Shown: in pieces, positions 2,806 to 64,000 of the stretch
How the letters are laid out: each line of letters begins with the position of its first letter
Numbering within the stretch: position 1 is the first letter of the stretch
Assembly: GCA_035700025.1 (NCBI GenBank)
Contig: DASSOY010000007.1
Span: 1,193-65,192, forward strand
From: Bacillales bacterium
GTDB lineage: Bacteria > Bacillota > Bacilli > Bacillales > DASSOY01
Direction of reading: 5' to 3'
Length of the DNA stretch: 64,000 bases
Made by a program: the position numbers and the translations under genes
The notes under the pieces: model-generated
Databases searched by the model: none
The model's input: only the letters and a program-made list of their open reading frames with translations
Told to the model about the DNA's origin: nothing

Positions 2806-3663
2806 ATGCCGTTGGTTTCAATGAAAAAAATGTTGGAGGACGCGAAAGCCGGGGGGTATGCGGTCGGTCAGTTTAATTTGAACAACTTGGAATTCACGCA
2901 AGCCATCCTGCAAGCAGCGGAAGCCGAGCAGTCACCAGTGATTTGCGGAGTTTCCGAAGGAGCCGCGCGTTACATGGGCGGTTTCAAGACGGTCGTGGAT
3001 ATGGTGAAAGCGTTGATGGAAGAATACGGAATTACGGTTCCGGCGGCGATTCACCTTGATCACGGATCGAGTTTCGAAAAATGCATACAAGCGATCAAAG
3101 CTGGATTTACTTCCGTAATGATCGACGGGTCCGCTTATCCGCTTGACGAAAATATTGCAGTGACGAAACAAGTCGTTGCCGCGGCTCATGCGGTCGGGGT
3201 ATCCGTAGAAGCGGAACTCGGGCGCGTCGGCGGACAGGAAGACGATGTCATCGTTCCTGAAGAAGTGTATGCCGTGCCTGAAGAGTGCCGGCAGCTCGTC
3301 GAGGCCACCGGCGTCGATTGCTTGGCTCCCGCGCTCGGATCGGTACACGGACCGTACAAAGGCGAGCCGAATCTCGGGTTCAAAGAAATGGAGGAAGTGC
3401 AGAACATTACGAAACTCCCTCTCGTTTTGCACGGCGGCACGGGAATACCGACCGCCGATATCCAGCGGGCCATTTCCCTCGGAACGGCAAAGATCAACGT
3501 CAATACGGAAAGCCAAATCTCGTCGGCGAAACGGGTACGGGAAGTATTGGCCGAAAACCCCGATCTGTACGATCCGCGTAAATATATGGGACCCGCGCGC
3601 GAAGCCATCAAAGAAACGGTTATCAACAAGATGCGTGAGTTTGGATCTTCGGGAAAAGCTTAA
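2806..3663 (+). CDS. fbaA: Class II fructose-1,6-bisphosphate aldolase
   Basis: [30 protein letters not shown]...HLDHG...[10 protein letters not shown]. Strong RBS GAAGGAGGA. Synteny supports the call. Confidence 0.95.
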
Positions 3664-8264: not shown

Positions 8265-8371
8265 CAAATGTCTAACCGGCTTGAAATCCCGTAACCTCCC
8301 TGCTATAATGTACGTTGGCATGCAAAAATACTCTGGTTTGAAATACAATCAGGGCAAAGGAGTTGAACGTG

Positions 8372-18146: not shown

Positions 18147-18383
18147 CCGGCGAGAGGCAAGCCAAGTGTTCTTTCGCATATTTTGAACGAAAGCTTGATT
18201 TGAAAACGATGCGTCATCTTTACGTCGGCGGCGCCGAAAAAGAATTTGTACCGAACGGAAAACAGCACTTTGGCGCATTTGTTTCGAACGAATGTACCAC
18301 TGAAACCATAAGGGGGTCCCAAAAGCTTGAGTTTTTGGGAACGTTTTCCTTTCCGGCAGCTGCCGATTCGATCAAGATTGCCA

Positions 18384-18580
18384 TTATCGCTCACTCATGT
18401 TCTTATTTCCTTCGAAATTCGTATTTTCAGATGAAATCGCTCATCAGAAACGCTATTTTCCGAATTTAGGCCAATAGGGGCTGTATTTTAACCATAAAAG
18501 GGAAATAGCGATCTCAGTGAACGATTTGATAAGATATCCGCTCATTTTCGCAAAATAGCGTCTCTCATACGCGTTTCCGA
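18384..18580. repeat. Degenerate copy of the 251-bp intergenic repeat family
   Basis: It contains the family boxes ATCGCTCATCAGAAACGCTATTTTCC (from 18436), GGAAATAGCGATCTCAGTGAACG and AAAATAGCGTCTCTCATACGCGTTTCC. Their order and orientation match the units at 30.5-31.3 kb. Confidence 0.5.
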
Positions 18581-26056: not shown

Positions 26057-26089
26057 AAACAGCCCTTTGCGGGGCTGTTTTTTGTTTTT
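26057..26089 (+). terminator. Intrinsic terminator of the atp operon, abutting the stop of the convergent LuxR gene
   Basis: AAACAGCCC-TTTGCG-GGGCTGTTT followed by a T-rich run (TTTTTTGTTTTT). Confidence 0.8.
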
Positions 26090-27614
26090 AAATAAGGCCG
26101 TTTCTCACTGCCCGAACCGCTGCTTCCGTGCGGTTGCGGGCGTTCATTTTTTGCATGATTGTCGAAACGTAATCTCTCACCGTATATTCGCTTAAATGCA
26201 GGTGTTCCGCCGCCTCGGTCGTCGTGGCGCCGTCGGCCATCAGTTTTAAGACGTCGAGCTCTCGCTGTGAGAGCTGATAAGAGAAACTGGTCCGGGTTCG
26301 CTCCGGTTCGTCTCCTCCGTATTTTGTCAGCAATTCGCCGGCGCTTTGACCGAAGTGCATGAGCGCCATGAATGTTTCGCGCGGCATTTTGAACGACTTT
26401 TCCGGTCCTTGGTCCAAGACGACGGCCCCAATCAGCTTGTTTTCGGACGGTACGTACACGGGAGCGACCACGACCGTTTTCAGCTGAAACTTGCGAACGT
26501 ATTGCAATGGAAACGCTTCTTCCGCTGAAGGAATGTAGATCGGCTGCCAAAGTCTCATGTGATGGTCGTGCGGCAGGAGGTTTTTCAAGTTCTTTTCCAG
26601 CAACGGTACGTGTTCGATGGGGAGCTTGATGCGGCGAATTTCATCGGCATTGAGCTCGCAGCCGAACAAGCCGGATCCGGTACGGTCGTCGTCGGAATAG
26701 GCAAACAGCGCACACCTTTCAAACGGCAAGTAGTTGACAAACCCTTGCGTCACTTTTTCCAACGCTTCTCTCAGCGTTCCCGCCGGCATGATCCAATTGT
26801 TGAACAAGCGCACGGCGTCTTTCCATTGTTGCTTTTGCTGTGTAAACTGCCGCATCGACTCGCCGGCAGCGTGAATTTGCAACACGAACGTCAGAAAAGG
26901 AAGGAGAGATGCTGCATCTTGACCGGATGTGCCGATCAACAACGTTTCCTCTCTCCAGGGGACCGGCAAGACGTGTCTTTCTTTAGTTGACGAAGACGGG
27001 AACGCCGCTAAGAGCTTCTCGGACAACAAGAAAACCGACTCGGCTGCCAATGGGGTTTCCCGTCGGCACAACCCGTCCGGTCCGATGATCGCCGTCACTT
27101 CATAGCGGGAATGGCGTTGCTTTGCACGGGCCACCCAGTCGACGGGCAATTGCCGGGAGGAAACGAGCTGTTCCACTAGTCGGGTGATGTTCACTTGTTC
27201 GTGAAACGGGGTCGACAGAAGGAGTTCGCCGATTTGCCCAAATAAAAATTGCACTGCTTGGTGATTGCGGCGGGAGTCGGCGCCGGTATCGCCGGAAACC
27301 GCGCGGTGAACAGCATTTTCTAACATCGTGACGACAAAGATGACGTGATTCGGATGGAACCGGGCGTCAACGGTGCAGGCGCTTTCTTCCAATTTTATAA
27401 AAAAAACGTTTGCGTCTTCCGCAGGCTCGCTGAAAAAATGGTTCGCAAAAAAATCGATGCCCGTTTCCATCGCCGCCGCTGTTTTTCCTCCATGTTCCCG
27501 GACTTGCGCACGCATGGCTGCCCATTCATCCTCGATGAAATTTCGGTGGCTTCTGACCAAATCCAATCCGGTTTGCAAAACCGCTTTCAGCTGCCGATCC
27601 AAGGAAAGCGCCAT
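26088..27614 (-). CDS. One-component transcriptional regulator: unknown N-terminal domain, a GAF-like domain and a C-terminal LuxR/GerE HTH
   Basis: The C-terminus LSQRELDVLKLMADGATTTEAAEHLHLSEYTVRDYVSTIMQKMNARNRTEAAVRAV is a canonical LuxR-type HTH. The preceding ~150 aa (ALEKVTQGFVNYLPFERCALFAY...LIGAVVLDQ) look GAF-like. There is no receiver domain. Confidence 0.85.
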   Translation of the reverse strand: MALSLDRQLKAVLQTGLDLVRSHRNFIEDEWAAMRAQVREHGGKTAAAMETGIDFFANHFFSEPAEDANVFFIKLEESACTVDARFHPNHVIFVVTMLENAVHRAVSGDTGADSRRNHQAVQFLFGQIGELLLSTPFHEQVNITRLVEQLVSSRQLPVDWVARAKQRHSRYEVTAIIGPDGLCRRETPLAAESVFLLSEKLLAAFPSSSTKERHVLPVPWREETLLIGTSGQDAASLLPFLTFVLQIHAAGESMRQFTQQKQQWKDAVRLFNNWIMPAGTLREALEKVTQGFVNYLPFERCALFAYSDDDRTGSGLFGCELNADEIRRIKLPIEHVPLLEKNLKNLLPHDHHMRLWQPIYIPSAEEAFPLQYVRKFQLKTVVVAPVYVPSENKLIGAVVLDQGPEKSFKMPRETFMALMHFGQSAGELLTKYGGDEPERTRTSFSYQLSQRELDVLKLMADGATTTEAAEHLHLSEYTVRDYVSTIMQKMNARNRTEAAVRAVRNGLI

Positions 27615-27780
27615 GATCGAGCCGACTCCTTTCGTTTTTCCGATTTCTTCCTATTCAACAAATTTCGGACACAATGGTTCCTTTTACAGGGGTACGCCGC
27701 GAATTGCGGAAGCTCTTTTTCATCCGAACCAACCCTTCATTCGTCGGGAGGCGTCTGGCAAATCCCCACACGTCTCGGAA

Positions 27781-27819
27781 TTGTCGGAGGGCAAGACTGT
27801 GCATACAATTAAAATTGTA
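27781..27819 (+). promoter_or_regulatory. Candidate sigmaA promoter of the 3-gene operon, with a palindrome overlapping the -10
   Basis: TTGTCG (27781-27786), a 17-nt spacer, then TACAAT (27804-27809). The perfect inverted repeat TACAATT-AA-AATTGTA spans 27804-27819. Confidence 0.45.
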
Positions 27820-27863
27820 AGCGTTTTCCTATTCAAATTCGAACAATGCGGAGGGAGAAGAAC

Positions 27864-28469
27864 ATGAATGCAGTGCTCCGTCATGAACCTACGGAAGAAG
27901 CGTCTTGCATCGTTGCGGGACGTATCGTGAAAAAGAAGTTTTTCGCGGCGCTCCTTGCGGGATTTCTCATGCTCGGCGGCTTGGCGGCGGCTTTTGGTAT
28001 TTCCGGAGTCGCTTTTGCGATGCCGATCGGTGGAATCGGCAACTTTCACGTCGAATTCGATAAGCTTGTCGGCACGAATTTTAAATTTTTTCCGAAACTC
28101 GGCGAAACCGGCAACAAAGACAAAGCGCCGATGGTCCGCAACAAAATCGACGAAGCGACCGTTTACGGCTTGCACATTTACAAAAACATCACGTTGCCGG
28201 GCGGGAACGATATCCGCCTGAACATCACCGCCGACAAACCGGTGAAAATCAAAGGCCTCATTCAGGACGCCAGATTCATCGAAGGGAATTTCCAGTTCAA
28301 CGATTTGGCGATCGCCGAGCATAACACAGACGATTTCACGAAAGAGTTTACCCAGGAAGCGAGTCATCTCGTGATCAAAAACGCGAGCATCGTGACCGAC
28401 TATTTGTTTCAAAGCATGGTTACGTTGAATGGAACGAAAATATACGTCGAAGACATTCCCGACAAGTAA
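27864..28469 (+). CDS. Secreted or membrane-anchored protein of unknown function (from memory resembles actinobacterial DUF6230; unverified)
   Basis: ATG 27864 follows GGAGGGAG. The signal-peptide-like N-terminus is KKKFFAALLAGFLMLGGLAAAFGISGVAFA|MP, followed by a ~150-aa beta-rich domain (FHVEFDKLVGTNF...LVIKNASIVTDYLFQSMVTL). Confidence 0.75.
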   Translation: MNAVLRHEPTEEASCIVAGRIVKKKFFAALLAGFLMLGGLAAAFGISGVAFAMPIGGIGNFHVEFDKLVGTNFKFFPKLGETGNKDKAPMVRNKIDEATVYGLHIYKNITLPGGNDIRLNITADKPVKIKGLIQDARFIEGNFQFNDLAIAEHNTDDFTKEFTQEASHLVIKNASIVTDYLFQSMVTLNGTKIYVEDIPDK

Positions 28470-28508
28470 ACGCGAACGGTTCGGCAACCGGAACAAAGAG
28501 GTGAGAAG

Positions 28509-28979
28509 ATGGCGAAAATCGAGCAAAATGCCGCCAAAAAGACGGAAAAACAGCGAAAGCGGCGGGAGGATGTAATCCAGGCGGGTCCGTTCAAACGGTG
28601 GCGAAGCGAGCGGCCGTTTTGGGGAGCGACGTTAACGCTGCTTTCCGGGATCATGATTTTATACATTCCCGTACAATTGTACGCGATCGCTTTTGCTCCC
28701 GGGAGTTTTGCCTTTGTCGGATTGTTGTTCGGGGGATTGATCGTGATCATCGGCAGCATGGCTTATAGGTACCCGCCGTTTTCGACGGTGTTCGGCGTAG
28801 TGACGATTTTTCTTTCCGTGTTGTCGATCATGGGTGCGCTCGGCGGATTCGTCATTGGCACCATCATTGGCATCATCGGCGGCGCGTTGTGCATTGCTTG
28901 GCAGCCGGAAATGGTTTCGAGCGAAACAGAAATCAGCGCCGTACAAGAACAGCTTGAGGAACCCGGATTAGGAGAATAA
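28509..28979 (+). CDS. Small 4-TM membrane protein of unknown function (from memory resembles DUF6114; unverified)
   Basis: A basic cytoplasmic N-terminus (KKTEKQRKRRED) is followed by four hydrophobic, Gly-rich helices. RBS AAGAGGTGA. It lies 39 nt after the upstream gene. Confidence 0.75.
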   Translation: MAKIEQNAAKKTEKQRKRREDVIQAGPFKRWRSERPFWGATLTLLSGIMILYIPVQLYAIAFAPGSFAFVGLLFGGLIVIIGSMAYRYPPFSTVFGVVTIFLSVLSIMGALGGFVIGTIIGIIGGALCIAWQPEMVSSETEISAVQEQLEEPGLGE

Positions 28980-28981
28980 AA

Positions 28982-30445
28982 ATGAAGCCGTTCACACGGA
29001 CGATCAGACAACCGCATATGTGGCTGGCCGTTGTCGTCATGGCGTTTCTCGCCGTACCGATAGGCGGGCAAGATGCGGCAGCCGCGGGCGAATCGCCGCA
29101 TGGATTCGTCATCCATGCCAACCGGATTTCCGGCGACATGCTGCCCCCGACGATCGTCGTCAAAAACGGACGACCGTTGCTGCGGTTCCGTTATCGGTCG
29201 GCGGTCATCAGAGGGTTGTCGATGACGAAGCAATTGGCGACGCCGGAAGGGCCGATGACGGTAAAAGTGCACGCCGCTTCGGCAGAAGCGAAAAACATGA
29301 AGGTCGATGCTTCGGCGTTCACGTTCGGCGGGGCTTGCTTAACACTCGGCGAAGCGCGGCCGCAACTCGTGCTAAAGAACGTGACGATGGTTGCCCATTA
29401 TCAATCGGCGAGCCGCCTCCGGCTCGAGCAAGCAAAGATTGGCGCGGTTCCGGGAAGGCACGGGCTCGACCGGCCGTCCGCGCCTGACTGGTTGCAACAG
29501 TTGCAACAAACCAGTGCCGCTTCGTTGCGAGAGGCGATTGAAAAGCTGATGAACGGAAACGTGCCTTTGTTGCCGTGCAGCAGCGGGAAAGATGACGGGC
29601 AGAACAAGCAGACGTCGGTTGTTGGTAAGGGGATGCACGGCGATGAGGTCGATAAAGTCGAACAAACCGCGAAAACGATCGAACAAGCGGCTGCCGGAAC
29701 TGTCAATGGCGCGGTCGATGGTATCGTTGGCGGACAAACCGGAAAAGCTGTTGGCGGTTTGCTCGATGAGGCGGAAGCAGGGGAGTTGCCATCCTTGCCG
29801 GAAGACCTCGAGCAAACCGTATGCGACGGTGTCGAAGCGCTGAAGAAACGTTTGGGCGAACTCGAGAGTGCAATCGATGAGCTCGAAAAAACCGTCACCG
29901 CCGCGACGGCGAAAACGAATGACGAATTAACAGCGGTTGATCAATTAAAGAAGCGGTTGCAAGAAATTCATGGTGAAATCGAACCGCTTGTCGCCGCCGA
30001 GCCGGACCGGGAAAATTTTACACGGTTAAAGGAACAAGCGGAGGACTTGAAACGGCAAGAAGAAGAGCTGCGTCAGTTAAAGGGAGCGGCCAACGACCGA
30101 CGGCTGAAGCTGGAACAGCTTCAGGCGCGATTGAACAGCTTGCAACAGCAAGCCGCCGGCATCGACGTGCCGCCGGGCTGCTCGTCAGTTTCTGCGGACG
30201 AGGCAACGGATGCGCTCCGCCGTCTTCGCCAACAAACTGAAACGGGACGTGAGCTGCTCGATCGCCTTGGCCATCAAATCGAAACGAGCGAAGCGATCGT
30301 CAAGACGATCGTCCGTGAAGCAGAAACGTACCTGAAAGAAGCGCAGCAAGCATGGGAAAGCCGATTGCTCAGCGGAATAACGGACGCGCTTAGGAACTTG
30401 GCGAACGAAGTGGAAGATGTACTGACCGACATAAAGAAAGAATGA
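28982..30445 (+). CDS. Secreted protein: N-terminal domain paralogous to the 27864-28469 product, plus a long C-terminal coiled coil
   Basis: The ATG is 2 nt after the upstream stop, behind AGGAGAA. The signal peptide is MWLAVVVMAFLAVPIGGQDAAAA. The N-domain aligns with the first ORF in three collinear blocks. The C-terminal ~250 aa are heptad-like and E/K/Q/L-rich. Confidence 0.75.
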   Translation: MKPFTRTIRQPHMWLAVVVMAFLAVPIGGQDAAAAGESPHGFVIHANRISGDMLPPTIVVKNGRPLLRFRYRSAVIRGLSMTKQLATPEGPMTVKVHAASAEAKNMKVDASAFTFGGACLTLGEARPQLVLKNVTMVAHYQSASRLRLEQAKIGAVPGRHGLDRPSAPDWLQQLQQTSAASLREAIEKLMNGNVPLLPCSSGKDDGQNKQTSVVGKGMHGDEVDKVEQTAKTIEQAAAGTVNGAVDGIVGGQTGKAVGGLLDEAEAGELPSLPEDLEQTVCDGVEALKKRLGELESAIDELEKTVTAATAKTNDELTAVDQLKKRLQEIHGEIEPLVAAEPDRENFTRLKEQAEDLKRQEEELRQLKGAANDRRLKLEQLQARLNSLQQQAAGIDVPPGCSSVSADEATDALRRLRQQTETGRELLDRLGHQIETSEAIVKTIVREAETYLKEAQQAWESRLLSGITDALRNLANEVEDVLTDIKKE

Positions 30446-30469
30446 AACGCCTAGAACTAGAAGGCGTCT

Positions 30470-31268
30470 CAAAAGCGAATCTTTCTGATGCTCGGAAAGC
30501 GATGCCGCTCGTTAGCGGCATATCTACGCTTCTCATGTACGATTCACCCATTTGTCGGTGGCACCGACAATTTCCGATTGGTCGAACTGCTGGAATCGCT
30601 CATGAGAGACGCTATTTGGATGGATATCGCGATTTTTTACCGATTATCGCTCATAGAGAACGCTATTTTTTTAGAAACCCCGGAAATCGCATTGATTTCC
30701 GGGTGGTTTTTAGAAATAGCGCTTCTCATGAGCGTTTCTATTTAAAAACCGGGCATATTAGGAAAATAGCGAATCTGATGCACGTTTTTTAATATAGCAT
30801 GAGATTTTCGGTAAACCGAAAATTTCCGATTGGTAGAACTGCTGAAATCGCTCATGAGGAACGCTATTTGGATGGAAATCGCGATTTTTACCGATTATCG
30901 CTCATAGAGAACGCTATTTTTTAAGAAACCCCGGAAATCGCATCGATTTCCGTAAGGTTTTTGGAAATAGCGCTTCTCATGAGCGTTTCCATTTAAAAAC
31001 CGGGCATATTAAGAAAATAGCGAATCTGATGCACGTTTTTTAATATAACATGAGATTTTCGGTCAACCGAAAATTTCCGATTGATCGAACTGCTGAAATC
31101 GCTCATGAGAGACGCTATTTGGATCGAATTCGCGATTTTTACCGATTATCGCTCATAGAGAACGCTATTTTTTAAGAAACCCCGGAAATCGCATCGATTT
31201 CCGGGTGGTTTTTGGAAATAGCGAATCTGATGCACGATTTTAACAAAGCATGAGATTTTCGGAACCGA
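30470..31268. repeat. Tandem array of a structured ~251-bp intergenic repeat: partial unit, two full units, and one unit with an internal deletion
   Basis: The anchor TTTCCGATTG recurs at 30571, 30823 and 31074 (periods of 252 and 251 bp). Units share the hairpins ATTTTCGG-TAAA-CCGAAAAT and CCCGGAAATC-GCATT-GATTTCCGGG, plus four copies of a ~21-nt box (CGCTCATGAGAGACGCTATTT), two direct and two inverted. Confidence 0.88.
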
Positions 31269-31341
31269 GCCGTGTCACCGGCATCAATTTTATCTGTCGA
31301 AATCAAACGTTCCGCCACGATTTTCCTCAATAAGGGTGTCG

Positions 31342-31370
31342 TCGACATAAAATCTGACTTTTGCTATAAT
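31342..31370 (+). promoter_or_regulatory. Candidate sigmaA promoter of the nuo operon (extended -10)
   Basis: TCGACA (31342-31347), a 17-nt spacer containing TGc, then a perfect TATAAT (31365-31370). Confidence 0.55.
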
Positions 31371-31777: not shown

Positions 31778-32295
31778 ATTTGAGCGGTATTACGCCTCAA
31801 GAACAGGAAGAGCTGAAAAGAAACGTGTTTCTCGTCACGCTCGAGCAAATGAAAGCTTGGGCGCGAAGCAATTCGTTATGGCCGATGACATTCGGGCTCG
31901 CTTGCTGCGCGATTGAAATGATGGGCACTGGTGCATCCCACTATGATCTCGATCGGTTCGGTTCGATTTTTCGCACGTCTCCGCGGCAGTCGGACGTCAT
32001 GATTGTGTCAGGAACGGTTACGAAAAAAATGGCCCCGGTCATTCGCCGGTTGTACGATCAAATGCCGGATCCGAAGTGGGTGATCGCGATGGGCTCGTGT
32101 GCAACCGCAGGCGGTCCATATGTGTATTCTTACGCGGTCGTGAAGGGCGTCGATCAAGTCGTTCCGGTTGATGTGTACATCCCGGGGTGCCCGCCGAATC
32201 CCGCGGCTCTCATTTACGGCATTCATAAATTGCAAGAAAAAATTCGCCAAGAAGCGAAAACCGGAAAGCGGGTGAAGCGCGTTGGCGAACGATGA
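31768..32295 (+). CDS. nuoB: NADH:quinone oxidoreductase subunit B
   Basis: [17 protein letters not shown]...[10 protein letters not shown]...IPGCPP (N2 cluster ligands). ATG 31768 overlaps the nuoA stop. Confidence 0.95.
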
Positions 32296-33562
32296 TCGTC
32301 GGGACGAAAAGAAAGCGCTTACGGAGCAAGACGAAAAGACTTCAGGAAAGAAAAGCGCGGAAGAACGTGTAAGAGAGATTAAGAGGCGGAAGGAAGAAGC
32401 GAAGCGTGCGGCTGAAGGCGATGCGGAAGTGAAAAGCGAGGCGAAGCTTTCGGCTGAAGAGCGCGTACGGGAGATTAAAAGAAAAAAAGCAGCCGCCGCT
32501 GATTCGGCGAAGGCGAACGCTGATAAGAAGTCGGCCGCGGAAGCGCGTGTGGCGGAGATTAAGCGGCGGAAGGAAGCGGCGCAGGCCGGGTCAGCGGAGG
32601 AAACGAGTTCCGCGGGCAGTGCGAAGAAAGGCGCTGAAGAGCGCGTGCGCGAAATCAAAAGGAAAAAAGAAGCGGCAGCCGGCGGTTCGCCGGAGCCGAA
32701 CGCTGATAAGAAGTCGGCCGCGGAAGCGCGAGTCGCGGAGATTAAGCGGCGGAAGGCGGAAGCCGCGGCAAAGAAAGCCGGTGGCGATGAAGCTGGGAAG
32801 AAGCTTTCGGCCGAAGAGCGCGTAGCGGAGATCAAGCGAAAGAAGGAAGCGGCGAAGCGGAAAGCGGGCGAAGGCGAGCCCGCGGCGGACGCGAAGTCCG
32901 CTGCGCAGCAGCGCGTAGCGGAGATCAAGCGGAAGAAGGCGCTCGCGGCGCAGAAGAAGCAAGCGGACGGCGAAGCCGGCGACAAGAGCGATCGCGAGAA
33001 GAAGATCGCGGCGATGAAGGCGAAGGCGGCGGCGAAGAAAGCGGCAGCGAAGCGCGAAGCGCAGGCGGAGCCGGAGGCGCCGTCGGTGAATGAGCCGCTG
33101 CTGGCGAAGTACGTCGCGGTGATCAAGGAGCGGCTCGGGGACGAGGCGCTGGAGGCGGCGTACATCAACAGGCTGGCGAAGGAAGTGCCGACGTTGGTGG
33201 CGAAGCCGGAGGCGTACCGGGCGGTCGCTGAGTTGTTGAAGAGCGACGAGCGGCTGCATTTTGAGTATTTGGCGGAGATTCACGGGACGGATTTTGAGAC
33301 GCACATGGAAATGTATTTGCATTTATATTCTTATAAAAATCGTCAGGCGGTGGCCCTGAAGGTGAAAGTGGACCGCGACGCGCCGGAGATTGATTCGGTG
33401 ACGCCGGTCTGGAAAGGGGCGGACTGGCCGGAGCGGGAAGCGTATGATTTGCTCGGGATCCGCTTTAAAGGGCATCCGAACTTGACGCGCATCATGATGC
33501 CGGACGATTGGGTCGGGCATCCGCTCCGAAAAGATTATGAGCCGCACGACGCGGAGGTGTAG
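32282..33562 (+). CDS. nuoC: NADH:quinone oxidoreductase subunit C with a ~265-aa repetitive N-terminal extension
   Basis: The C-terminal ~160 aa are canonical NuoC ([32 protein letters not shown]). The N-terminal part is in frame and repeat-rich. The TTG start at 32282 overlaps the nuoB end, and the exact start is uncertain. Confidence 0.88.
32340..33070 (+). repeat. Intragenic tandem coding repeats in nuoC (7 clear copies and 1 degenerate copy of K-x-SAEERV(R/A)EIKR(K/R)K)
   Basis: The motif recurs about every 25-32 aa. Copies differ by synonymous codons: gta cgg gag att aaa aga at about 32465, versus gtg cgc gaa atc aaa agg at about 32645, both encoding VREIKR. Confidence 0.9.
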
Positions 33563-56915: not shown

Positions 56916-57503
56916 ATGGTTCATTTGAAGCAGCAAAGGCAATTGTTTTTCGCATTTTTTCGCGTCGGCATTTTCGGTTATGGAGGCGGGCCGGCATCGA
57001 TACCGCTTGTCCATAAAGAAGTCGTCGAAAATTATAAATGGCTCGATGACCGGGATTTCAACGACTTGTTGGCGCTTGCCAATACGCTTCCCGGGCCGAT
57101 TGCCACAAAAATGGCCGGCTATATCGGCCACCGCGTCGCAGGTGTTACAGGAATGATCAATGCGGTGCTGGCCACGATCTTGCCATCGATCTTCATCATG
57201 GTAGTTTTGTTATCATCGCTCGCAGCCGTGAAAGACAAACCCTGGGTGCAAGGCATGACAGATGCCGTCATGCCGGTCGTCGGCGTCATGCTCGCCGTGC
57301 TCACCTGGAGTTTTTTTCGCAGATCGAAAGAAGGGCTTGGTTTATGGAAGAGTTTAATGTTCGTCGCAGGCAGCTTCGTGTTGATCAAAGTCCTTCCGAG
57401 CCCGGCCATCTTGATTTTAGCCTTGCTGCTGATCGGCTTGCTTAAGCCGGTACGCAAGGACAATGCCGATGCCGTTGGCGCGGAAAGGGAGGAGTCGGTA
57501 TGA
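56916..57503 (+). CDS. chrA: Chromate transporter (CHR family, short half-size subunit 1; ywrB-like)
   Basis: FFRVGIFGYGGGPASIPLVHKEVV...LPGPIATKMAGYIG is the hallmark CHR motif. Confidence 0.88.
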   Translation: MVHLKQQRQLFFAFFRVGIFGYGGGPASIPLVHKEVVENYKWLDDRDFNDLLALANTLPGPIATKMAGYIGHRVAGVTGMINAVLATILPSIFIMVVLLSSLAAVKDKPWVQGMTDAVMPVVGVMLAVLTWSFFRRSKEGLGLWKSLMFVAGSFVLIKVLPSPAILILALLLIGLLKPVRKDNADAVGAEREESV

Positions 57504-58036
57504 TGATTTATTGGAAAATCTTCGTCGCCTTCTTCATTCCCGGCGTTCTCGGCTACGGAGGCGGTCCTGCTTCGATTCCGCTCGTCGAGGACCAAGTCAT
57601 CGACCATTACGGCTGGATGGACGCCGAGAAGTTTGCCGAGGTACTGGCCATCGGCAACGCTTTACCCGGTCCGATTGCCACGAAGCTTGCCGGCTACATC
57701 GGCTATCAACAAGGCGGCATCCTCGGTGCGGTCGTCGGTGTCTTCGCCACCGTCGCACCGTCGCTCATTCTAATGATCTTTTTGCTGGGGATGCTGTACC
57801 GTTTCAAAGACTCGCCGAAGGTGAAACAAATGACAAATTTCATCCGACCGGCGATTGCGGTCTTGCTCGGTGTCATTGCCTTCCAATTTTTCGTGGAATC
57901 GTACCACGGCGCTGGTTGGCTGCAAACGCTCATCCTCACGGCTGCGAGCTTTTTCTTTCTTGAGAAGCTGAAAGTCCACCCGGCGATCGTGATCGCCGGC
58001 GCGCTAGGCTACGGCGCGATCTTCTTGGCGGCTTAA
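57500..58036 (+). CDS. chrA: Chromate transporter (CHR family, short half-size subunit 2; ywrA-like)
   Basis: FFIPGVLGYGGGPASIPLVEDQVI...LPGPIATKLAGYIG. It overlaps the subunit 1 stop. Confidence 0.88.
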   Translation: MMIYWKIFVAFFIPGVLGYGGGPASIPLVEDQVIDHYGWMDAEKFAEVLAIGNALPGPIATKLAGYIGYQQGGILGAVVGVFATVAPSLILMIFLLGMLYRFKDSPKVKQMTNFIRPAIAVLLGVIAFQFFVESYHGAGWLQTLILTAASFFFLEKLKVHPAIVIAGALGYGAIFLAA

Positions 58037-58039
58037 TGT

Positions 58040-58578
58040 GGATTTAGCTCATACAGGTGAAAATTTCCGATAGGGCGAATTGCTGGAATCGCTCATGAGA
58101 GACGCTATTTGGATCAAATTCGCGATTTCCCAAAATTATCGCTCATCCAGAACGCTATTTTCCCAGAACCCCCGGAAATCGGATGGATTCCCGGTTGGTT
58201 TTTGGGAATAGCGCATCGTATGCACGATTCCATCTGAAAAAGCGGGCATATTAGGCAAATAGCGCATCTGATGCACGTTTTTCATATAACATGAGATTTT
58301 CGGTAAACCGAAAATGTCCGTTTGGTCGAACTGCTGGAATCGCTCATGAGAGACGCTATTTGGATCAAATTCGCGATTTCCAACGATTATCGCTCATCCA
58401 GAACGCTATTTTCAGAGAACCCCCGAAAATCGGATGGATTTCCGGTTGGTTTTTGGGAATAGCGCATCTGGTGCACGATTCCATCTGAAAAAGCGGGCAT
58501 ATCAGGCAAATAGCGCATCTGATGCACGATTTTCATATAACATGAGATTTTCGGTAAACCGAAAATGTTCGATTGGTG
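58040..58578. repeat. Second tandem array of the ~251-bp intergenic repeat family (two full units plus partial ends)
   Basis: GCTGGAATCGCTCATGAGAGACGCTATTTGGATCAAATTCGCGATTTCC occurs at 58082 and 58333 (period 251). The layout of boxes and hairpins matches the array at 30.47-31.27 kb. Confidence 0.88.
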
Positions 58579-59553
58579 CTAGGAAAGTTCGAACACTTTT
58601 ACAGATGTTTTGAGACGTTCAAATTCCTCCAATGCGATTGAGCCTGCCTTTTTTGTTAGTGCATTTGCTGCCCCTGCTGCCGCTGCCATGCATAAGCAAT
58701 GTTTGATTTTATTCCCGCTGTAAAGTCCGGCAATGAATCCAGCCGCGAATGAATCTCCTGAACCTACACTGTTCACCACATTAATGGGAGGGGGGATTAC
58801 TCGATAAAATTTGTCGTTTGCAGATACGATTGCTCCGTCTTTACCTAATGTAACGATCATAATCGGAATCTTGAATTTTCTCCATTTATTTAGAGTGTGA
58901 ACCACTTCGTCTTCCGAAATTTGATCGACACCGACAATTTGGGCCAATTCTTCTTGATTCGGTTTTATGAGGAAAGGTTCAGCCATCAAAACTTCTTTAA
59001 ATGGTGCTCCACTAGTATCAACAACTGCTTTTGCCCCTTGTGCATGAATGACTTTGACAAGTTCGGCATAAGATCGGTTCGTCAAACCCTGCGGCAAGCT
59101 CCCTGACAAGACGATGTACTCACTCTTTGAAGCTAGAGCATCAAGCGTTTTCTTCAACTGGTTCCATTGCTCGTGATTAATCCATGGCCCTTTTTCGAGA
59201 ATTTCTGTAGACTCGTTTTTTTGTTTGTCAATCACGTTCAAACAAATTCGTGATTCACCGGAGACGTGGACAAATTCATGTTCAATTTGTAATAAATCCA
59301 TACTTTCAGATAAAAATGCTCCGTTGTAACCCCCAGCGAACCCCGTCACTGTAACGGGGATGTTTAAGGTTTTCAATACCTTTGCGACGTTGATTCCCTT
59401 TCCGCCAGGTTCGATGTGCATTTGATTTACGCGATTGACTCTGTTTTTTTCAAATGACGCCATATAGTAAGTTTTATCGATGGCGAGATTTAAGGTGACT
59501 GTCGTTATCAAAAGGTTTCCCCACTTTTCTGTCGAAATGACGTACACAACCAA
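58579..59553 (-). CDS. 1-phosphofructokinase / tagatose-6-phosphate kinase family hexose-phosphate kinase (FruK/LacC/PfkB)
   Basis: ITTVTLNLAIDKTY...GGKGINVAKVL...IKPNQEEL...VNSVGSGDSFAAGF. An alternative TTG start at 59511 gives the usual family N-terminus. Confidence 0.87.
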   Translation of the reverse strand: MVVYVISTEKWGNLLITTVTLNLAIDKTYYMASFEKNRVNRVNQMHIEPGGKGINVAKVLKTLNIPVTVTGFAGGYNGAFLSESMDLLQIEHEFVHVSGESRICLNVIDKQKNESTEILEKGPWINHEQWNQLKKTLDALASKSEYIVLSGSLPQGLTNRSYAELVKVIHAQGAKAVVDTSGAPFKEVLMAEPFLIKPNQEELAQIVGVDQISEDEVVHTLNKWRKFKIPIMIVTLGKDGAIVSANDKFYRVIPPPINVVNSVGSGDSFAAGFIAGLYSGNKIKHCLCMAAAAGAANALTKKAGSIALEEFERLKTSVKVFELS

Positions 59554-59560
59554 AGCCGAT

Positions 59561-60496
59561 TTAATTGTTGATTTTCAATTTGGTGAGTTGTCTGAAGCCT
59601 TCCTTCCTATTGTGCGAAGAAATCACTGTTGCGCTCACTTCGTTAGCGAAACGGAGGCAATTTGACAAAGGCTTCTCTTGTCTTCTTGCGAATAAATATC
59701 CCATATCAAAGATATCTCCTGCTCCAGTAGTATCGACGACGTCTGTTTCGTGACTTGGGGGGACTTGAATGAGTTCACCGTCCTTCATAACAGCAGCGCC
59801 ATTTGCGCCAAGTTTCACCACAACTTCCCCACAATACTTTTTAACGATATCCAGTCCTTTTTGCCATTCCGATGTATTCGTCAAATGACAAATTTCTGTT
59901 TCATTCGGCATGAAGACATCGACAAATTGAAGCAGATGAAAGGTCTGCGATTTTCTTTTCTCAGTCCATCCAGATGGATCCCAGCTTGGATCAAAGTAGA
60001 CGCGTTTTCCAAGCGATTGTTGTTCTTTCGCGACTACGACAGCCTCGATTGGTGAAAATTTCGGCAGCAAATACGTCCCACAAATCACAACGTCATCACA
60101 GACATCGAGAAGTTCTTTTTTGGCATGATAAATAGACAAACCGAACGCATCATGAGCCCCGGAAACAGAAACTATCGCCCTTGAGCCATTTTCATGTACG
60201 ATAACGAAGCCGTTAGGCGTTATGGTGTTTTCCACACATACAATACCTTCCGTTGCAAGTCCCCTTGTTTCTAATTCACGAATGAGAAACTTCCCTTGAT
60301 CATCGTTTCCGATGCTTGAAATGATGTTGGCCTTCACGCCAAGGGCATGCAAGGCAATTGCCATGTAACCTGCCGTTCCGGCGACTCTCGTTTCAAAGCT
60401 TTCGGCCTCGATTTCGGCATCCCAGTGAGGGGCTTCTTTCACTTTTCCAATGACCGTATCCACGTTATAATTCCCAATAATACCAACAGGGTTCAT
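59561..60496 (-). CDS. PfkB/ribokinase-family sugar kinase
   Basis: GIIGNYNVDTV...GTAGYMAIALHALG...VVDTTGAGDIFDMGYL (the anion-hole/GAGD motif). Confidence 0.85.
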   Translation of the reverse strand: MNPVGIIGNYNVDTVIGKVKEAPHWDAEIEAESFETRVAGTAGYMAIALHALGVKANIISSIGNDDQGKFLIRELETRGLATEGIVCVENTITPNGFVIVHENGSRAIVSVSGAHDAFGLSIYHAKKELLDVCDDVVICGTYLLPKFSPIEAVVVAKEQQSLGKRVYFDPSWDPSGWTEKRKSQTFHLLQFVDVFMPNETEICHLTNTSEWQKGLDIVKKYCGEVVVKLGANGAAVMKDGELIQVPPSHETDVVDTTGAGDIFDMGYLFARRQEKPLSNCLRFANEVSATVISSHNRKEGFRQLTKLKINN

Positions 60497-60529
60497 AAAA
60501 AAACAACCTCCTCGATCAACGATGTTTCA

Positions 60530-61360
60530 TTATTGTTTAACAGCGGCAGTCGTTAAGCCGGAAACTAAATATTTGTTGAGAAAAATAACGATCAAAATCG
60601 GTGGGATCATCGTGATCACACCAGCGGCGGTCATTAATCCGTAATTAATCGATGTTCGGCCAACAAATTCGGTGATCAGTACCGTTAAAGGTTTTGTTTC
60701 CGAAGGAGCAAACACCAGTGGAATCAAGAATTGGCTCCATGCATTTAAGAAGGTCAAAATCGCAACGGCGACCACACCAGGTAGAGCAATAGGCAAAATC
60801 GTCCATAAAGCCCTGAGTTTTGTCGCACCGTCAACCGTAGCGGCTTCTTCCAACTCTTTCGGGATCGTTGCAAAATAACTTCTCATTAACCATACGGCTA
60901 ACGGTGCAAAAGCGGAAACGTAGATTAACGTAATGCCCACTTGCGTATCGATCAAGCCAATACTTATCATGACTTTATACAACGGAATCATGACTGCATA
61001 GGCTGGCAAGGCCATGGTGATTAAAATCATACTAAAAATGATGTTTCGCCCTTTGAAGGGTATTCTCGCAAAAGCATATCCAGCTAAAATTGAAACGATC
61101 ACCACGACGACGGTAGAACCAAGACAACTAATTGATGTGTTGACCATTGCCCCTTTGAACTGAACCCATAACGACGACTGTTTATCGAAGCCTAAAAGTT
61201 GTTGGTAGTGTTGCAAACTTAACGGAATAGGCAAATACTTTGGCGGCAAGGTCGTTAAAGCTTTATTGGATAACAGGCTTGTACGGAGTGCCCAATATAT
61301 GGGGGCCAATGTCCAAAATAAAATAAAAACGACGGATATTCCCGTTTTTAGTTTTTTCAT
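60530..61360 (-). CDS. Carbohydrate ABC transporter permease (MalG/CUT1 type)
   Basis: Six TM helices and an EAA loop (IPKELEEAATVDGATKLR). ATG 61360 makes an ATGA overlap with the upstream permease stop. Confidence 0.93.
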   Translation of the reverse strand: MKKLKTGISVVFILFWTLAPIYWALRTSLLSNKALTTLPPKYLPIPLSLQHYQQLLGFDKQSSLWVQFKGAMVNTSISCLGSTVVVVIVSILAGYAFARIPFKGRNIIFSMILITMALPAYAVMIPLYKVMISIGLIDTQVGITLIYVSAFAPLAVWLMRSYFATIPKELEEAATVDGATKLRALWTILPIALPGVVAVAILTFLNAWSQFLIPLVFAPSETKPLTVLITEFVGRTSINYGLMTAAGVITMIPPILIVIFLNKYLVSGLTTAAVKQ

Positions 61361-62232
61361 GTTTTCGCCCTTCTTTCCCTCAATAACCAAATATAAAGCA
61401 CGCTAATGGCCAAAGTAGCTATGGTAATAAGCAAGGAAAGTGCCATGCCCAATCCTAGGTCCAACTGACGAAAAGCAATTAGGTAGGTTTGGATTAAAAT
61501 CGATCGAGTATCCAAGGCCGTCCCTGTAAGAACAAATATTTCATCAAACAAATTTACGGCCATAAATGTCATTTGCGTTAATGCTATGGCGATTGCCGGT
61601 TTCAACATAGGCAACGTAATTCTCTGGAAGCGTTGCCACCGATTTGCTCCGTCAATTTCTGCGGCTTCATAAATGTCGTCAGGAATGGTGGTGAGTGCTG
61701 CCAATAAAATGACGGCAACGATCGGAATCATTTTCCAAATATGAACGATCGCCACGAGAAAAATCGCAAGACCAGGTTGACCCAACAAGACTTGATACGA
61801 ATCAATGAGACCTGCGTGAAGCAAAAGATCGTTTAAAACACCATAGGAAGGATCGTAAATCCATTTCCAAATCACACCATTTACCACAGGGGGCAATGCC
61901 CATGGAAGAATCACCAATGCAAGCACAATTCCTCTTCCCCTGAATTTGTTTCTCAACGTCAGGGCGATGAACAGACCTCCGAGAAATTCCCCGACAATCG
62001 CCAAAATATAGTACAAAGCTGTGTTTCCAGCCGCCCGCAATACAACGGGATCCTGTAATAAATTGATATAGTTGCTTAAGCCCACAAACTTCACGTCTGC
62101 CGGCTTTGTTAAATTTAATGACTTGAAACTGTCGATCAATGTAACGAAACCCGGATAAAAAACTAAGCTGATCATGACAAAAGCTAGAGGAAAAATTAAT
62201 AAGTACGGAAATATTTTCTTTCTCACCTGCAT
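61357..62232 (-). CDS. Carbohydrate ABC transporter permease (MalF/CUT1 type)
   Basis: Six TM helices and an EAA loop (IPDDIYEAAEIDGANRWQRF). Confidence 0.93.
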   Translation of the reverse strand: MQVRKKIFPYLLIFPLAFVMISLVFYPGFVTLIDSFKSLNLTKPADVKFVGLSNYINLLQDPVVLRAAGNTALYYILAIVGEFLGGLFIALTLRNKFRGRGIVLALVILPWALPPVVNGVIWKWIYDPSYGVLNDLLLHAGLIDSYQVLLGQPGLAIFLVAIVHIWKMIPIVAVILLAALTTIPDDIYEAAEIDGANRWQRFQRITLPMLKPAIAIALTQMTFMAVNLFDEIFVLTGTALDTRSILIQTYLIAFRQLDLGLGMALSLLITIATLAISVLYIWLLRERRAKT

Positions 62233-62289
62233 GTCTTTCCTCCCTTAAAGAGAGGGGCTGTAAAATTACTTTACAGCCCGTCCTAGATA

Positions 62290-63606
62290 TTACTTCTGAG
62301 TGATTTCTTTTGCTTTATCGCCAATTTTTTGGATGCCTTCGTCGAGCGACAGTGAACCTTTCGCCATTTGATTAATCGTAGTAGCGACTGTTGTGCTGAA
62401 TTCAGGGTACCAAGGTGGTGTGCCTTGGGGGAATAAAGGTTCAACTGTTGGGAGGACTTTGAGTATTGTATCGCCACCAGGCAATTCTCCGGCTTCATTC
62501 ATTGATTCGAGAACGCTTTTACGATTGGGCAGTAAGCCGAGATCCTTATATAATTTTTTAACATTTTCAGGTTGATTTAACCATTTGATGAATGCTACTG
62601 AAGCCTCTTTATGTTTCGAAGCCTTAGGAATTCCGAAGGCCCCAACCAATCCGAATGTCCGGCTTTCCCCATCTTTACCGGGAACAGGAATCATCTGAAC
62701 GCTATCGCTCACTTTTGATTTTTCTGAATCTTTATAGACGGCGTAATTTCCAGACCATCCCGACAAATCAATGGCAGATTTTCCGGACTTAAATTGATCG
62801 ATGACATCGACGTCTTTCAAGCTGACAGCAGCAGGATCAATAATATGATCTTCTTTCATGCTTTCGATGATAAACTGCATCGCTTTGTATCCAGCCGAAT
62901 TCTTAGAAGTAAATAAAGGGTTCCAATCCTTATCGAAAAGTTCTCCGCCATATGCTTTTGTCATCAAATACCACGGTGTAGCAGCTCCTTCCGTAGCAGA
63001 CAGAGGCAAACCGAGAGGATAATCGACGATACCTTTGCTCTTGATTTTTTTAGCATCTTCAATCAACTGTTGAGGAGTTTGCGGCATTTCGGTAATGCCT
63101 GCAGCTTTAAAATATTTCTCGTTAATATATGTGACACGAAAATCGTTAAAGTAGGGCATCGCCAAATAGTGATCATTGTATTTGAAAATATCCATCGTCG
63201 GGATGTCGTCAATCAACTTTTGATCAAAGTATTGGTTTAAAGGTTCGTACCAATTCGATGCCCCAAATTGCCCGACCCAAGACCAGTCAAATTCGGTGAT
63301 GTCTGCGGGGGCAACTCCGGCAGCTGCAGAGGTGACGATTTTATCATGAATGTCGTCCCAGCCGAGCGTTTCAATGTGGACGGTTATGCCGGATTCTTTC
63401 TTGAATTCATCCAGCATGCTTTGCGGGATTTTCGACCAAGGCGGCAGCAAAGCCTTAATTTCCGTGCCTTTTAAATCTTTTTGACCGTTGCCGTCTCCGG
63501 CTGATCCTTCGCTGTTTCCTTGTCCTGAACAGCCGAAAGTGACAATACTTAAGACGAGAACCATGCCAATCATCAACCATTTTTTACAACCCATGATTTT
63601 CTTCAT
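62290..63606 (-). CDS. Carbohydrate ABC transporter substrate-binding lipoprotein (family 1)
   Basis: MKKIMGCKKWLMIGMVLVLSIVTFGC (lipobox). ATG 63606 follows AAAGGAGGA. Confidence 0.92.
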   Translation of the reverse strand: MKKIMGCKKWLMIGMVLVLSIVTFGCSGQGNSEGSAGDGNGQKDLKGTEIKALLPPWSKIPQSMLDEFKKESGITVHIETLGWDDIHDKIVTSAAAGVAPADITEFDWSWVGQFGASNWYEPLNQYFDQKLIDDIPTMDIFKYNDHYLAMPYFNDFRVTYINEKYFKAAGITEMPQTPQQLIEDAKKIKSKGIVDYPLGLPLSATEGAATPWYLMTKAYGGELFDKDWNPLFTSKNSAGYKAMQFIIESMKEDHIIDPAAVSLKDVDVIDQFKSGKSAIDLSGWSGNYAVYKDSEKSKVSDSVQMIPVPGKDGESRTFGLVGAFGIPKASKHKEASVAFIKWLNQPENVKKLYKDLGLLPNRKSVLESMNEAGELPGGDTILKVLPTVEPLFPQGTPPWYPEFSTTVATTINQMAKGSLSLDEGIQKIGDKAKEITQK

Positions 63607-63673
63607 TATATCCTCCTTTTTGAAGCGTATCTGCAAGCGTTTGCAATTTTTCGGCGGGAGATGACTTCTCTCC

Positions 63674-64000
63674 CTATGCCTTTTGATCCGATTTGACATT
63701 CAAAATGATTTGCTTTGCAACATCTTTCACTACTTGTCTAGCTGTGAGAAAATATTTTCTTGGATCGGATTCCTTTGGATGTTGCTTAAGATATTGACGC
63801 AGTTCTTCGATAAATGTGTTCTTTAAATCTGTTGAAATATTGACTTTACTTACGCCAAACTTCAATGCTTCTCGAACGCTTGTTGACGAAACACCTGAAG
63901 CACCATGCATGACGATCGGAAGGCAAACTCGAGTTGAAATTTCTTGCAATCGATTGAAATCAAGTTTCGGGTCATCTTTGTATACGCCATGCGCGGTGCC
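63674..64000 (-). CDS. Class II ketose-bisphosphate aldolase (FbaA/GatY/KbaY family); 3' part only, as the 5' end runs off the window
   Basis: LPIVMHGASGVSSTSVREALKFGVSKVNISTDLK is the class II aldolase C-terminal pattern. The reading frame continues open to base 64000. Confidence 0.85.
   Translation of the reverse strand, partial: GTAHGVYKDDPKLDFNRLQEISTRVCLPIVMHGASGVSSTSVREALKFGVSKVNISTDLKNTFIEELRQYLKQHPKESDPRKYFLTARQVVKDVAKQIILNVKSDQKA

Follow-up and report, generated by a model that had tools for sequence, protein, structure and literature searches.

What kind of element is the ~800-bp, AT-rich, noncoding repeat that lies upstream of nuoA in a Bacillales genome assembly (GCA_035700025.1, contig DASSOY010000007.1)? 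The analysis concerns a 64-kb window of that contig, and all coordinates are those of the whole window, numbered from its first letter; the repeat, hereafter array 1, occupies 30470-31268. An initial annotation made from the sequence had offered three candidate roles: a structured RNA, an array of protein-binding sites, or a genome-architecture element resembling repetitive extragenic palindromic (REP) sequences and bacterial interspersed mosaic elements (BIMEs). Our results support the second and third of these but lend no specific support to the first. The repeats form a dispersed, modular family that is patchy among relatives, amplified in the source genome and built from bipartite boxes at fixed spacing. 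The feature is real and part of a wider family, and it looks like a selfish, DNA-recognized repeat with tandem amplification rather than an RNA gene. The best single explanation that we can offer, and a tentative one, is that array 1 is a locally amplified, non-autonomous, selfish intergenic element similar to BIMEs or to MITEs (miniature transposable elements with inverted repeats), recognized as double-stranded DNA.

Array 1 is made up of two full units, preceded by a decayed one and followed by one that lacks a box. Each full unit carries four copies of a box, the first two (boxes 1 and 2) direct and the last two (boxes 3 and 4) inverted, around a central hairpin, and ends in a hairpin at the junction with the next unit. 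Tandem Repeats Finder places the array at 30563-31223 (period 251, 2.6 copies, 93% matches), and successive copies, taken in register, lie 252 and 251 bp apart, which bears out the make-up and the two periods first annotated. The parts of array 1 are as follows.

30470-30562, + strand: decayed partial unit at the left edge, recognized by sequence, alignment and direct-repeat family, with a box-3-like sequence at 30471-30495 and a box-4-like sequence at 30522-30545, 51 nt apart.
30563-30814, + strand: full unit 1 (252 bp), with box 1 at 30592-30617, box 2 at 30643-30668, box 3 (inverted) at 30714-30739 and box 4 (inverted) at 30764-30789; central hairpin 30679-30703, junction hairpin 30804-30823.
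30815-31065, + strand: full unit 2 (251 bp), with box 1 at 30844-30869, box 2 at 30894-30919, box 3 at 30965-30990 and box 4 at 31015-31040; central hairpin 30930-30954 (two mutations), junction hairpin 31055-31074.
31066-31268, + strand: unit 3 (~50 bp short), with box 1 at 31095-31120, box 2 at 31145-31170 and a lone inverted box of the box 4 type at 31216-31241.
30679-30703: central GC-rich hairpin followed on the + strand by TGGTTTTT; found again at 30930-30954 and 31181-31205, with degenerate versions in the second array described below, at 58177-58196 and 58428-58447.

A degenerate junction hairpin (30550-30571) follows the box-like pair of the decayed unit, and the right end of the array reads ...ATTTTCGG/AACCGA. 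In unit 3 the inverted box stands directly after the central hairpin at 31181-31205; by alignment, exactly one box and one linker are missing, a loss that is consistent with recombination between boxes 3 and 4.

The boxes had been annotated as repeats of ~21 nt, two direct and two inverted. Their positions stand (the 21-nt cores lie in direct orientation at 30597-30617 and 30648-30668 and inverted at 30714-30734 and 30764-30784), but their size does not: alignment of all boxes extends each to 26 nt and reveals a bipartite structure, in which A-A/T-C-G and CGCTATTT flank 11 variable, purine-rich nucleotides. The left half-site is TCTAACG in most other hosts. Read in the same orientation, the cores of boxes 1 and 3 differ at 2 of 21 positions, giving the 19 Watson-Crick pairs, one G-U pair and one mismatch (A-C) counted previously. 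With up to three mismatches, the 21-nt box occurs nine times in the window against 0.00 expected, and the 64 kb contain 22 copies of CGCTATT[TC], every one of them within the repeats. The repeat elements have a GC content of 39-44%, compared to 51% for the window.

Boxes are arranged by a strict grammar. A four-box core of ~195 bp runs from box 1 (+) over 50 bp to box 2 (+), through a center to box 3 (-), and over another 50 bp to box 4 (-), with a box-to-box distance of 50-51 bp; in the nine elements measured, the spacings of boxes 1 and 2 and of boxes 3 and 4 are always 50 or 51, and box coordinates give 50 and 50 for a further, single element (18383-18578). The center is either 35/36 or 45/46 bp long, two classes that differ by ~10 bp, or roughly one helical turn. 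While the boxes are conserved, the linkers cannot be aligned between family members. In the arrays, successive cores are joined by a module of ~55 nt in which inverted termini, ACCGAAAAT...ATTTTCGGT, abut with a spacer of 2 to 4 bp. The junction hairpin arises because these termini meet where units stand head to tail, as they do at every unit junction of both arrays in the window. In array 1 the junction hairpins (ATTTTCGG-TAAA/TCAA-CCGAAAAT, at 30804-30823 and 31055-31074) and the perfect central hairpin (CCCGGAAATC-GCATT-GATTTCCGGG, with a 10-bp stem, at 30679-30703) are located where the initial annotation had put them. That annotation had also seen no terminal inverted repeats with target duplications. 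Duplications were indeed not found, but inverted termini are present, since the units are bounded by ACCGAAAAT...ATTTTCGGT and the outer boxes are themselves inverted.

Two further members of the family lie in the window, one a second tandem array (array 3) and the other a single element without the junction module.

58056-58577, + strand: array 3, with 2.1 units of period 251, 92% internal identity and 81-84% identity to array 1.
58085, 58135, 58206 and 58257: box starts of array 3, unit 1.
58336, 58386, 58457 and 58508: box starts of array 3, unit 2.
58296-58315 and 58547-58566: junction hairpins of array 3.
18383-18578, + strand: single four-box element, with box 1 at 18383-18408, box 2 at 18433-18458, box 3 at 18503-18528 and box 4 at 18553-18578.

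Array 3 is located between the convergent genes chrA (+) and a pfkB-type kinase (-), where GC content falls from ~53% to 43%. The single element, which lies between upp and a 162-aa ORFan/atpI, has spacings of 50, 45 and 50 bp and linkers that do not align with the array linkers. Identity is 92-93% within arrays compared to 81-84% between them. All three loci are intergenic and in the same orientation, and they are unrelated sites within 64 kb.

These copies show several marks of known mobile repeats. As in MITEs, there are multiple dispersed copies (three separate loci within 64 kb), and the element is noncoding and shorter than ~600 bp (core 195 bp, unit 251 bp), with inverted ends in the form of boxes 1 and 4 and of the termini. 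As in BIMEs, it is a mosaic in which one motif stands twice direct and twice inverted, at spacings of 50, 35/46 and 50, and it forms arrays of 2 to 3.5 units. The REP palindrome itself is missing: the box has no GTAG tag, and most of its copies are not hairpins. The repeats show no coding signal, as substitutions number 7/6/4 and 4/5/5 across codon positions; we rejected a coding reading since there is neither third-position bias nor a ribosome-binding site, and small open reading frames (ORFs) are not preserved. A clustered regularly interspaced short palindromic repeat (CRISPR) array, in agreement with the initial annotation, was also rejected, as the would-be "spacers" recur too, boxes are found in either orientation and the window has no cas genes. 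Readings of the hairpins as Noc-binding sites or CodY boxes failed on inspection, where half-sites are present in the wrong order or at the wrong spacing.

Does the family extend beyond the source genome? The exact box pattern ATCGCTCATNAGNNACGCTATTT had no match in GTDB genomes, IMG/VR or JGI metagenomes, because boxes diverge between lineages and the source genome is not in those sets. Relatives were found via the NuoA cluster and Upp homologues. In a sister metagenome-assembled genome (MAG), the first 190 nt of a 2.2-kb contig (L057), upstream of nuoA, show the 2+2 layout at the same spacing, built from a diverged box, GCGGACTGAGAGGACGCTATTT. A two-box pattern search recovered complete four-box elements on four metagenome contigs (L065, L070, L073 and L080) and, on a fifth (L067), an array of direct boxes only; two IMG/VR matches to a two-box pattern were dismissed as a chance match within a coding region. 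In the last metagenome scan, inspected by eye for the 2+2 architecture, 12 of 17 loci were chance or unrelated. BLAST with the metagenome elements then identified a copy in Paenibacillus cellulosilyticus (L083) between glyS and a ppsR-like gene, and a second, degraded copy (L084) on another replicon. Across 1.14 Mb of fetched DNA, a box matrix combined with the spacing rule found the architecture in the named elements and nowhere else. Box sequence varies by lineage (TCTAACG..., AATCGCTCAT..., GCGGACT...), and box 4 differs from the other boxes (AAATAAGGTCTG...). Searches with blastn of array 1 against plasmids and phages gave no match, nor did a concatenated family query against phages, and we found no account of a four-box family in the sources searched, including the literature by box sequence.

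Occupancy is patchy. Across the syntenic upp-atp-nuo region of seven sister genomes (~120 kb in all) we found one copy only, that of L057, and empty sites are visible in the atpC-nuoA gap of three relatives (L001, L058 and L062) and in the upp-atp gap of six. MAG assemblies under-represent repeats, and the L057 contig breaks inside one. Nevertheless, the copies are not confined to a local duplication in one strain, the trivial outcome against which the initial annotation had cautioned; they are dispersed both in the window and in other hosts. This bears on one alternative, an inert satellite in which a chance palindromic duplication was expanded by slippage, with neither a cognate factor nor a function. 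Ragged ends, decayed edge units, AT-rich composition and a noncoding location would all be expected of such a satellite. The same architecture in unrelated hosts and at three loci of the window, together with half-sites and a 50-bp spacing that persist while linkers have become unalignable, would not, and given this cross-host conservation we consider an inert satellite unlikely, indeed very improbable.

The junctions raise another alternative, that ATTTTCGG-NNNN-CCGAAAAT is the core site of a site-specific recombinase and that excised circles of ~251 bp re-integrate in the manner of integron cassettes or tandem integrative elements, which would yield head-to-tail arrays. An identical 8-4-8 palindrome at every unit boundary in two independent arrays is what such a process would leave, the junction module is conserved in the sister MAG (L057, 301-330, a junction-like hairpin followed by TTTCCG), and the four boxes on the flanks are reminiscent of accessory or arm-type sites in attP-like substrates. 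However, no recombinase gene lies nearby, 4 bp is a short spacer for a tyrosine recombinase, and the array edges do not stop at the palindrome. Family members outside the window lineage, on the metagenome contigs and in P. cellulosilyticus, have no junction module, and unequal crossing-over is a simpler account of the arrays, making site-specific recombination an improbable origin for them.

Is the unit read as RNA or as DNA? If transcribed, it could form a long hairpin (box 1 with box 4, box 2 with box 3, and a central stem-loop) and serve as a small RNA, as a stabilizer or terminator at mRNA 3' ends, or as an antisense RNA. The predicted fold is strong: the folding energy of one unit is -83.1 kcal/mol for the + strand (z = -7.2 relative to shuffles) and -75.1 kcal/mol for the - strand (z = -4.6). 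RNAalifold on nine diverse elements recovers the long hairpin, with double changes in 21 of 39 pairs. Pair counts were compared with shuffled and slid controls; the hairpin pairs in 86.3% of cells compared to 72.1% in shuffles, and its covariation score is 0.415 compared to 0.164, with none of 500 shuffles as high. The central hairpins are terminator-like, and arrays 1 and 3 both stand just downstream of + strand genes.

The covariation, however, is not confined to pairing partners. All six types of box pair covary within an element (identity 0.64-0.74 compared to 0.51-0.58 between elements), with a within-element excess of 0.12-0.20 (permutation p ≤ 0.0012 for all six types, direct pairs included). 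The direct pairs (boxes 1 and 2, boxes 3 and 4) and the inverted pairs that are not hairpin partners covary as strongly as the partners, or more so. Because a hairpin cannot explain the similarity of direct repeats, the covariation of its arms is not specific to RNA; the whole pattern would follow from concerted evolution of a single recognition sequence present in four copies. Thus the fold and the covariation for which the initial annotation had proposed tests are both present, but the covariation is not specific to hairpin partners. The conserved nucleotides lie in the would-be helices while loops and linkers vary freely, the reverse of typical functional RNAs. Mutations in the central hairpin of unit 2 and array 3 are uncompensated, and this GC-rich hairpin is specific to the window arrays, missing from the single element and from most other family members. 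Scans found no promoter-like site within the units, and the P. cellulosilyticus copy is antisense to its neighboring genes. Array 1 matched no Rfam family at the gathering threshold (best permissive match 26 bits against a gathering score of 245 bits), and four other family members had no match at E ≤ 1. We therefore regard a structured or cis-acting RNA as quite unlikely. A more limited effect on transcription is probable, in that the central hairpin and TGGTTTTT together look like an intrinsic terminator; terminator scans found 6 where 1.7 were expected and 5 where 1.0 were expected. The sole Rfam match in the window at the gathering threshold lies elsewhere, an L31-Firmicutes ribosomal-protein leader at 8331-8362 (34.6 bits against a cut-off of 33.3).

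Signs of recognition at the DNA level, namely the conserved half-sites around a variable 11-nt spacer, the fixed spacing, the ~10-bp step in the center and the covariation of the boxes, suggest instead that a protein reads the element as a duplex. We propose that the boxes bind a transposase- or recombinase-like protein that acts in trans from elsewhere in the genome, with two sites per end, and that this protein spreads the element to new intergenic sites. In the source lineage the core would have gained the short inverted termini ACCGAAAAT...ATTTTCGGT, after which arrays would have expanded, contracted and been homogenized as units, and boxes, recombined unequally; the loss of 50 bp from unit 3 would be one such event. 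As a by-product, the central GC-rich hairpin and its T-run probably stop read-through from the upstream island operon before it reaches the nuoA promoter.

Several observations weigh against a selfish, protein-mobilized element. Reading of the flanks revealed no target-site duplication at the single elements (that of the window, L065, L070, L073, L080 and L083). Array ends are ragged: array 3 stops 19 nt into its next unit, and the left unit of array 1 has decayed. Near none of the copies did we find a transposase, a recombinase or a recurrent neighbor gene, with Pfam, NCBIfam and PHROGs all negative for a transposase; the absence of a transposase, as first annotated, thus extends from the window to the surroundings of the other copies. 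The window also has no gene for a REP-associated tyrosine transposase (RAYT), and all-against-all blastp of neighboring ORFs found only nuoA/nuoB synteny and S-layer homology (SLH) proteins in common. We saw no long element with box pairs on its flanks. P. cellulosilyticus has only two copies in ~3.2 Mb by BLAST, a search blind to similarity limited to the boxes. The source genome is represented by 64 kb only, and its relatives by fragmented MAGs whose assembly loses repeats. Finally, the difference in box 4, conserved across hosts, would also suit a polar host function or an RNA.

The first of these possibilities deserves its own consideration. The phased boxes could be sites of a nucleoid-organizing, replication- or segregation-linked, or global regulatory protein, with the arrays as selected, high-avidity versions of a host-function platform. 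Bipartite boxes at a strict 50-bp spacing in very different hosts would fit this, as would the differentiation of box 4, which is kept in L065, L070 and L080. The window loci are all three oriented the same way, in the direction of the leading strand as inferred from GC skew and gene direction, an element lies upstream of nuoA in two species, and neither a target-site duplication nor a transposase speaks for mobility. Yet most sister genomes have no element at the same loci, copy density is sharply uneven between genomes, and both L084 and the leftmost unit of array 1 are decayed copies. Box sequence shifts between lineages, which would be unexpected for the sites of a conserved host factor. 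On balance we consider a host platform unlikely, and continue to favor, tentatively, a selfish element recognized as DNA.

How did array 1 come to lie at this position? In the three sister genomes L001, L058 and L062, atpC is followed directly by nuoA, with a gap of 155-334 bp. Since the two genes adjoin there, 26088-31341 in the window is a lineage-specific insertion, of 5.3 kb, which starts after the atpC terminator and has array 1 as its right edge; the placement of the array at a junction between core and accessory DNA by the initial annotation is borne out by these three genomes.

26088-30445: gene content of the insertion (by Pfam), a LuxR/GAF regulator (- strand) followed by DUF6230, DUF6114 and a 487-aa coiled-coil protein (+ strand).
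31342-31370, + strand: nuoA promoter (TCGACA, 17 nt, TGcTATAAT), 74 nt downstream of array 1.

DUF6230 and DUF6114 are typical of actinomycetes. The coiled coil of the 487-aa protein lies in its C-terminal half, and the insertion proteins are singletons at 90% identity in the clustered collection. A search for att-like direct repeats at the island borders gave as its best match an 11-nt inverted chance match, and such repeats were rejected. Because the nuoA promoter lies 74 nt beyond the array, within DNA conserved with sister genomes, array 1 is not part of a nuo 5' untranslated region or leader. The source lineage itself is isolated within the Bacillales: AtpC is 86% identical to that of one soil MAG and ~54% identical to that of Sporolactobacillus, and in a set of 15 billion proteins clustered at 90% identity, those of the window stand as singletons.

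Other features of the window and of its relatives were recorded alongside. All three window repeat loci adjoin DNA that is lineage-specific or compositionally atypical. Directly to the right of array 3, GC content is 42-44% across 58000-64000, over a - strand cluster with two pfkB kinases and a sugar ABC transporter, and at 56916-58036 the chromate transporter is encoded by two adjacent half-size genes (195 and 178 aa, with one Chromate_transp domain each). Downstream of nuoA, the NuoC protein (32282-33562) is ~426-470 aa long in this lineage and has a Lys/Glu/Arg-rich segment encoded by four to seven in-frame tandem repeats of ~87-123 nt, which are kept in every sister genome (L001 2970-3720, L056 810-1475, L057 1640-2050, L058 19950-20565, L062 16520-17110). 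The P. cellulosilyticus element L083 is flanked by inverted copies of a different palindromic repeat of ~80 nt (...GTTGTCTCCCGATTGTTCTGATTAGATAAGATCAGAA...), at 2660-2740 and 3400-3480 of NZ_CP054609, a "plasmid" record that carries the core genes glyQS and dnaG. Logan contigs from three runs (L087, L088 and L089) all end exactly 916 nt downstream of upp, with no box element before the break; their common end suggests a shared assembly-breaking feature just beyond.

Two tandem arrays of another design were also seen. On a Paenibacillus-like metagenome contig (L067, 5116-5290), four copies of a box-like sequence, TTGTGGCGGAGAGACGCTATTT, form a direct-only array with a 50-bp period, flanked by a direct repeat of ~40 nt. 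At the upp-atp locus of two Bacillus sp. assemblies (L090, GCA_002335755.1, 13070-13800; L091, GCA_002797415.1, 13050-13975), the atp operon is separated from a peptidase S8 gene, located downstream of upp, by a tandem array of 52-bp units, with 10 and 13 in-register copies, respectively, a difference of 156 bp. Its unit resembles the left half of the box (TAACG, N4, TGAGAGA), does not include CGCTATTT and contains an internal hairpin, TAACG..CTTGA..TCAAG..CGTTA. The unit scores 14-17 bits by its left half-box, against a background of five matches above 14 bits in 2.2 Mb. The likeness is no more than suggestive of kinship to the four-box family.

The family matters for several reasons. Interspersed repeats of Firmicutes are poorly catalogued, and the factor that mobilizes or binds them is mostly not known. 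An explicit grammar common to a deep-branching, uncultured Bacillales lineage and to Paenibacillus makes the partner protein directly findable, and if a mobilizing machinery does act on the boxes, tandem arrays would be a natural high-copy substrate with which to find it. In practical terms, the arrays break MAG assemblies, as the sister contig that ends inside one illustrates, and they mark the edges of acquired DNA; they also probably insulate the nuo promoter from upstream transcription.

Among known systems, BIMEs and REP sequences of Enterobacteria and Pseudomonas (including REPINs) are similar in being intergenic mosaics of direct and inverted motifs with defined linkers, arrays and hairpins; they often lie at gene 3' ends and are recognized by proteins (RAYT, gyrase, IHF). 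REPs, however, are GC-rich imperfect palindromes of 20-40 nt with a GTAG/CGTC tag and are linked to RAYTs, whereas the four-box family has AT-rich, bipartite, non-palindromic boxes of 26 nt without GTAG, a Firmicute host and a strict 50-bp spacing. Bacterial MITEs (bcr1 of the Bacillus cereus group, RUP, Correia/NEMIS and ERIC) are likewise noncoding elements of 100-400 bp with terminal inverted repeats, dispersed, hairpin-folding, amplified by lineage and patchy. The four-box elements differ from them in the absence of a detectable target-site duplication, in having two boxes per end at a fixed distance and in their long head-to-tail arrays; we know of no parent insertion sequence with four-box ends. 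BOX elements of Streptococcus pneumoniae are also modular Firmicute intergenic repeats with tandem module amplification, stem-loop potential and a mobilizing factor that is not known. Their sequence is unrelated, and they combine three modules (boxA, a repeated boxB and boxC) in one orientation and amplify a 45-nt module, whereas the four-box element uses one motif in a 2+2 arrangement and amplifies the whole unit.

In the way it works the element is nearest to BIME/REP mosaics and MITEs, although it is not a REP sequence and not a demonstrated MITE; its box layout brings to mind multi-site transposon ends. Tn552, Tn7, Mu, IS21 and the inverted-repeat/direct-repeat (IR-DR) ends of Sleeping Beauty and Tc3 carry at least two transposase sites of ~20-30 bp, direct at one of the ends and inverted at the opposite one. 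How these sites are spaced matters for synapsis, and abutted ends of the IS21, IS30 and IS3 types, with a spacer of 2 to 4 bp, are reactive junctions. The likeness is one of architecture only: the four-box elements have no terminal TG...CA and are not known to share sequence with any such end. Within the Bacillales, the genome of B. subtilis 168 (Kunst et al. 1997) reportedly includes a 190-bp element repeated 10 times, said to be intergenic, origin-proximal, in a common orientation, palindromic and of unexplained function. Its likeness to the four-box element would lie in size, location and orientation. It is possible, though doubtful, that the four-box module is the platform of a DNA-binding or transposition machinery widespread in Bacillales, in a family that may include the B. 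subtilis 190-bp repeats and the arrays of L067 and L090/L091. Should the four-box family and the B. subtilis repeats prove to be one and the same, comparative work would offer a handle on a feature that has stood unexplained since 1997.

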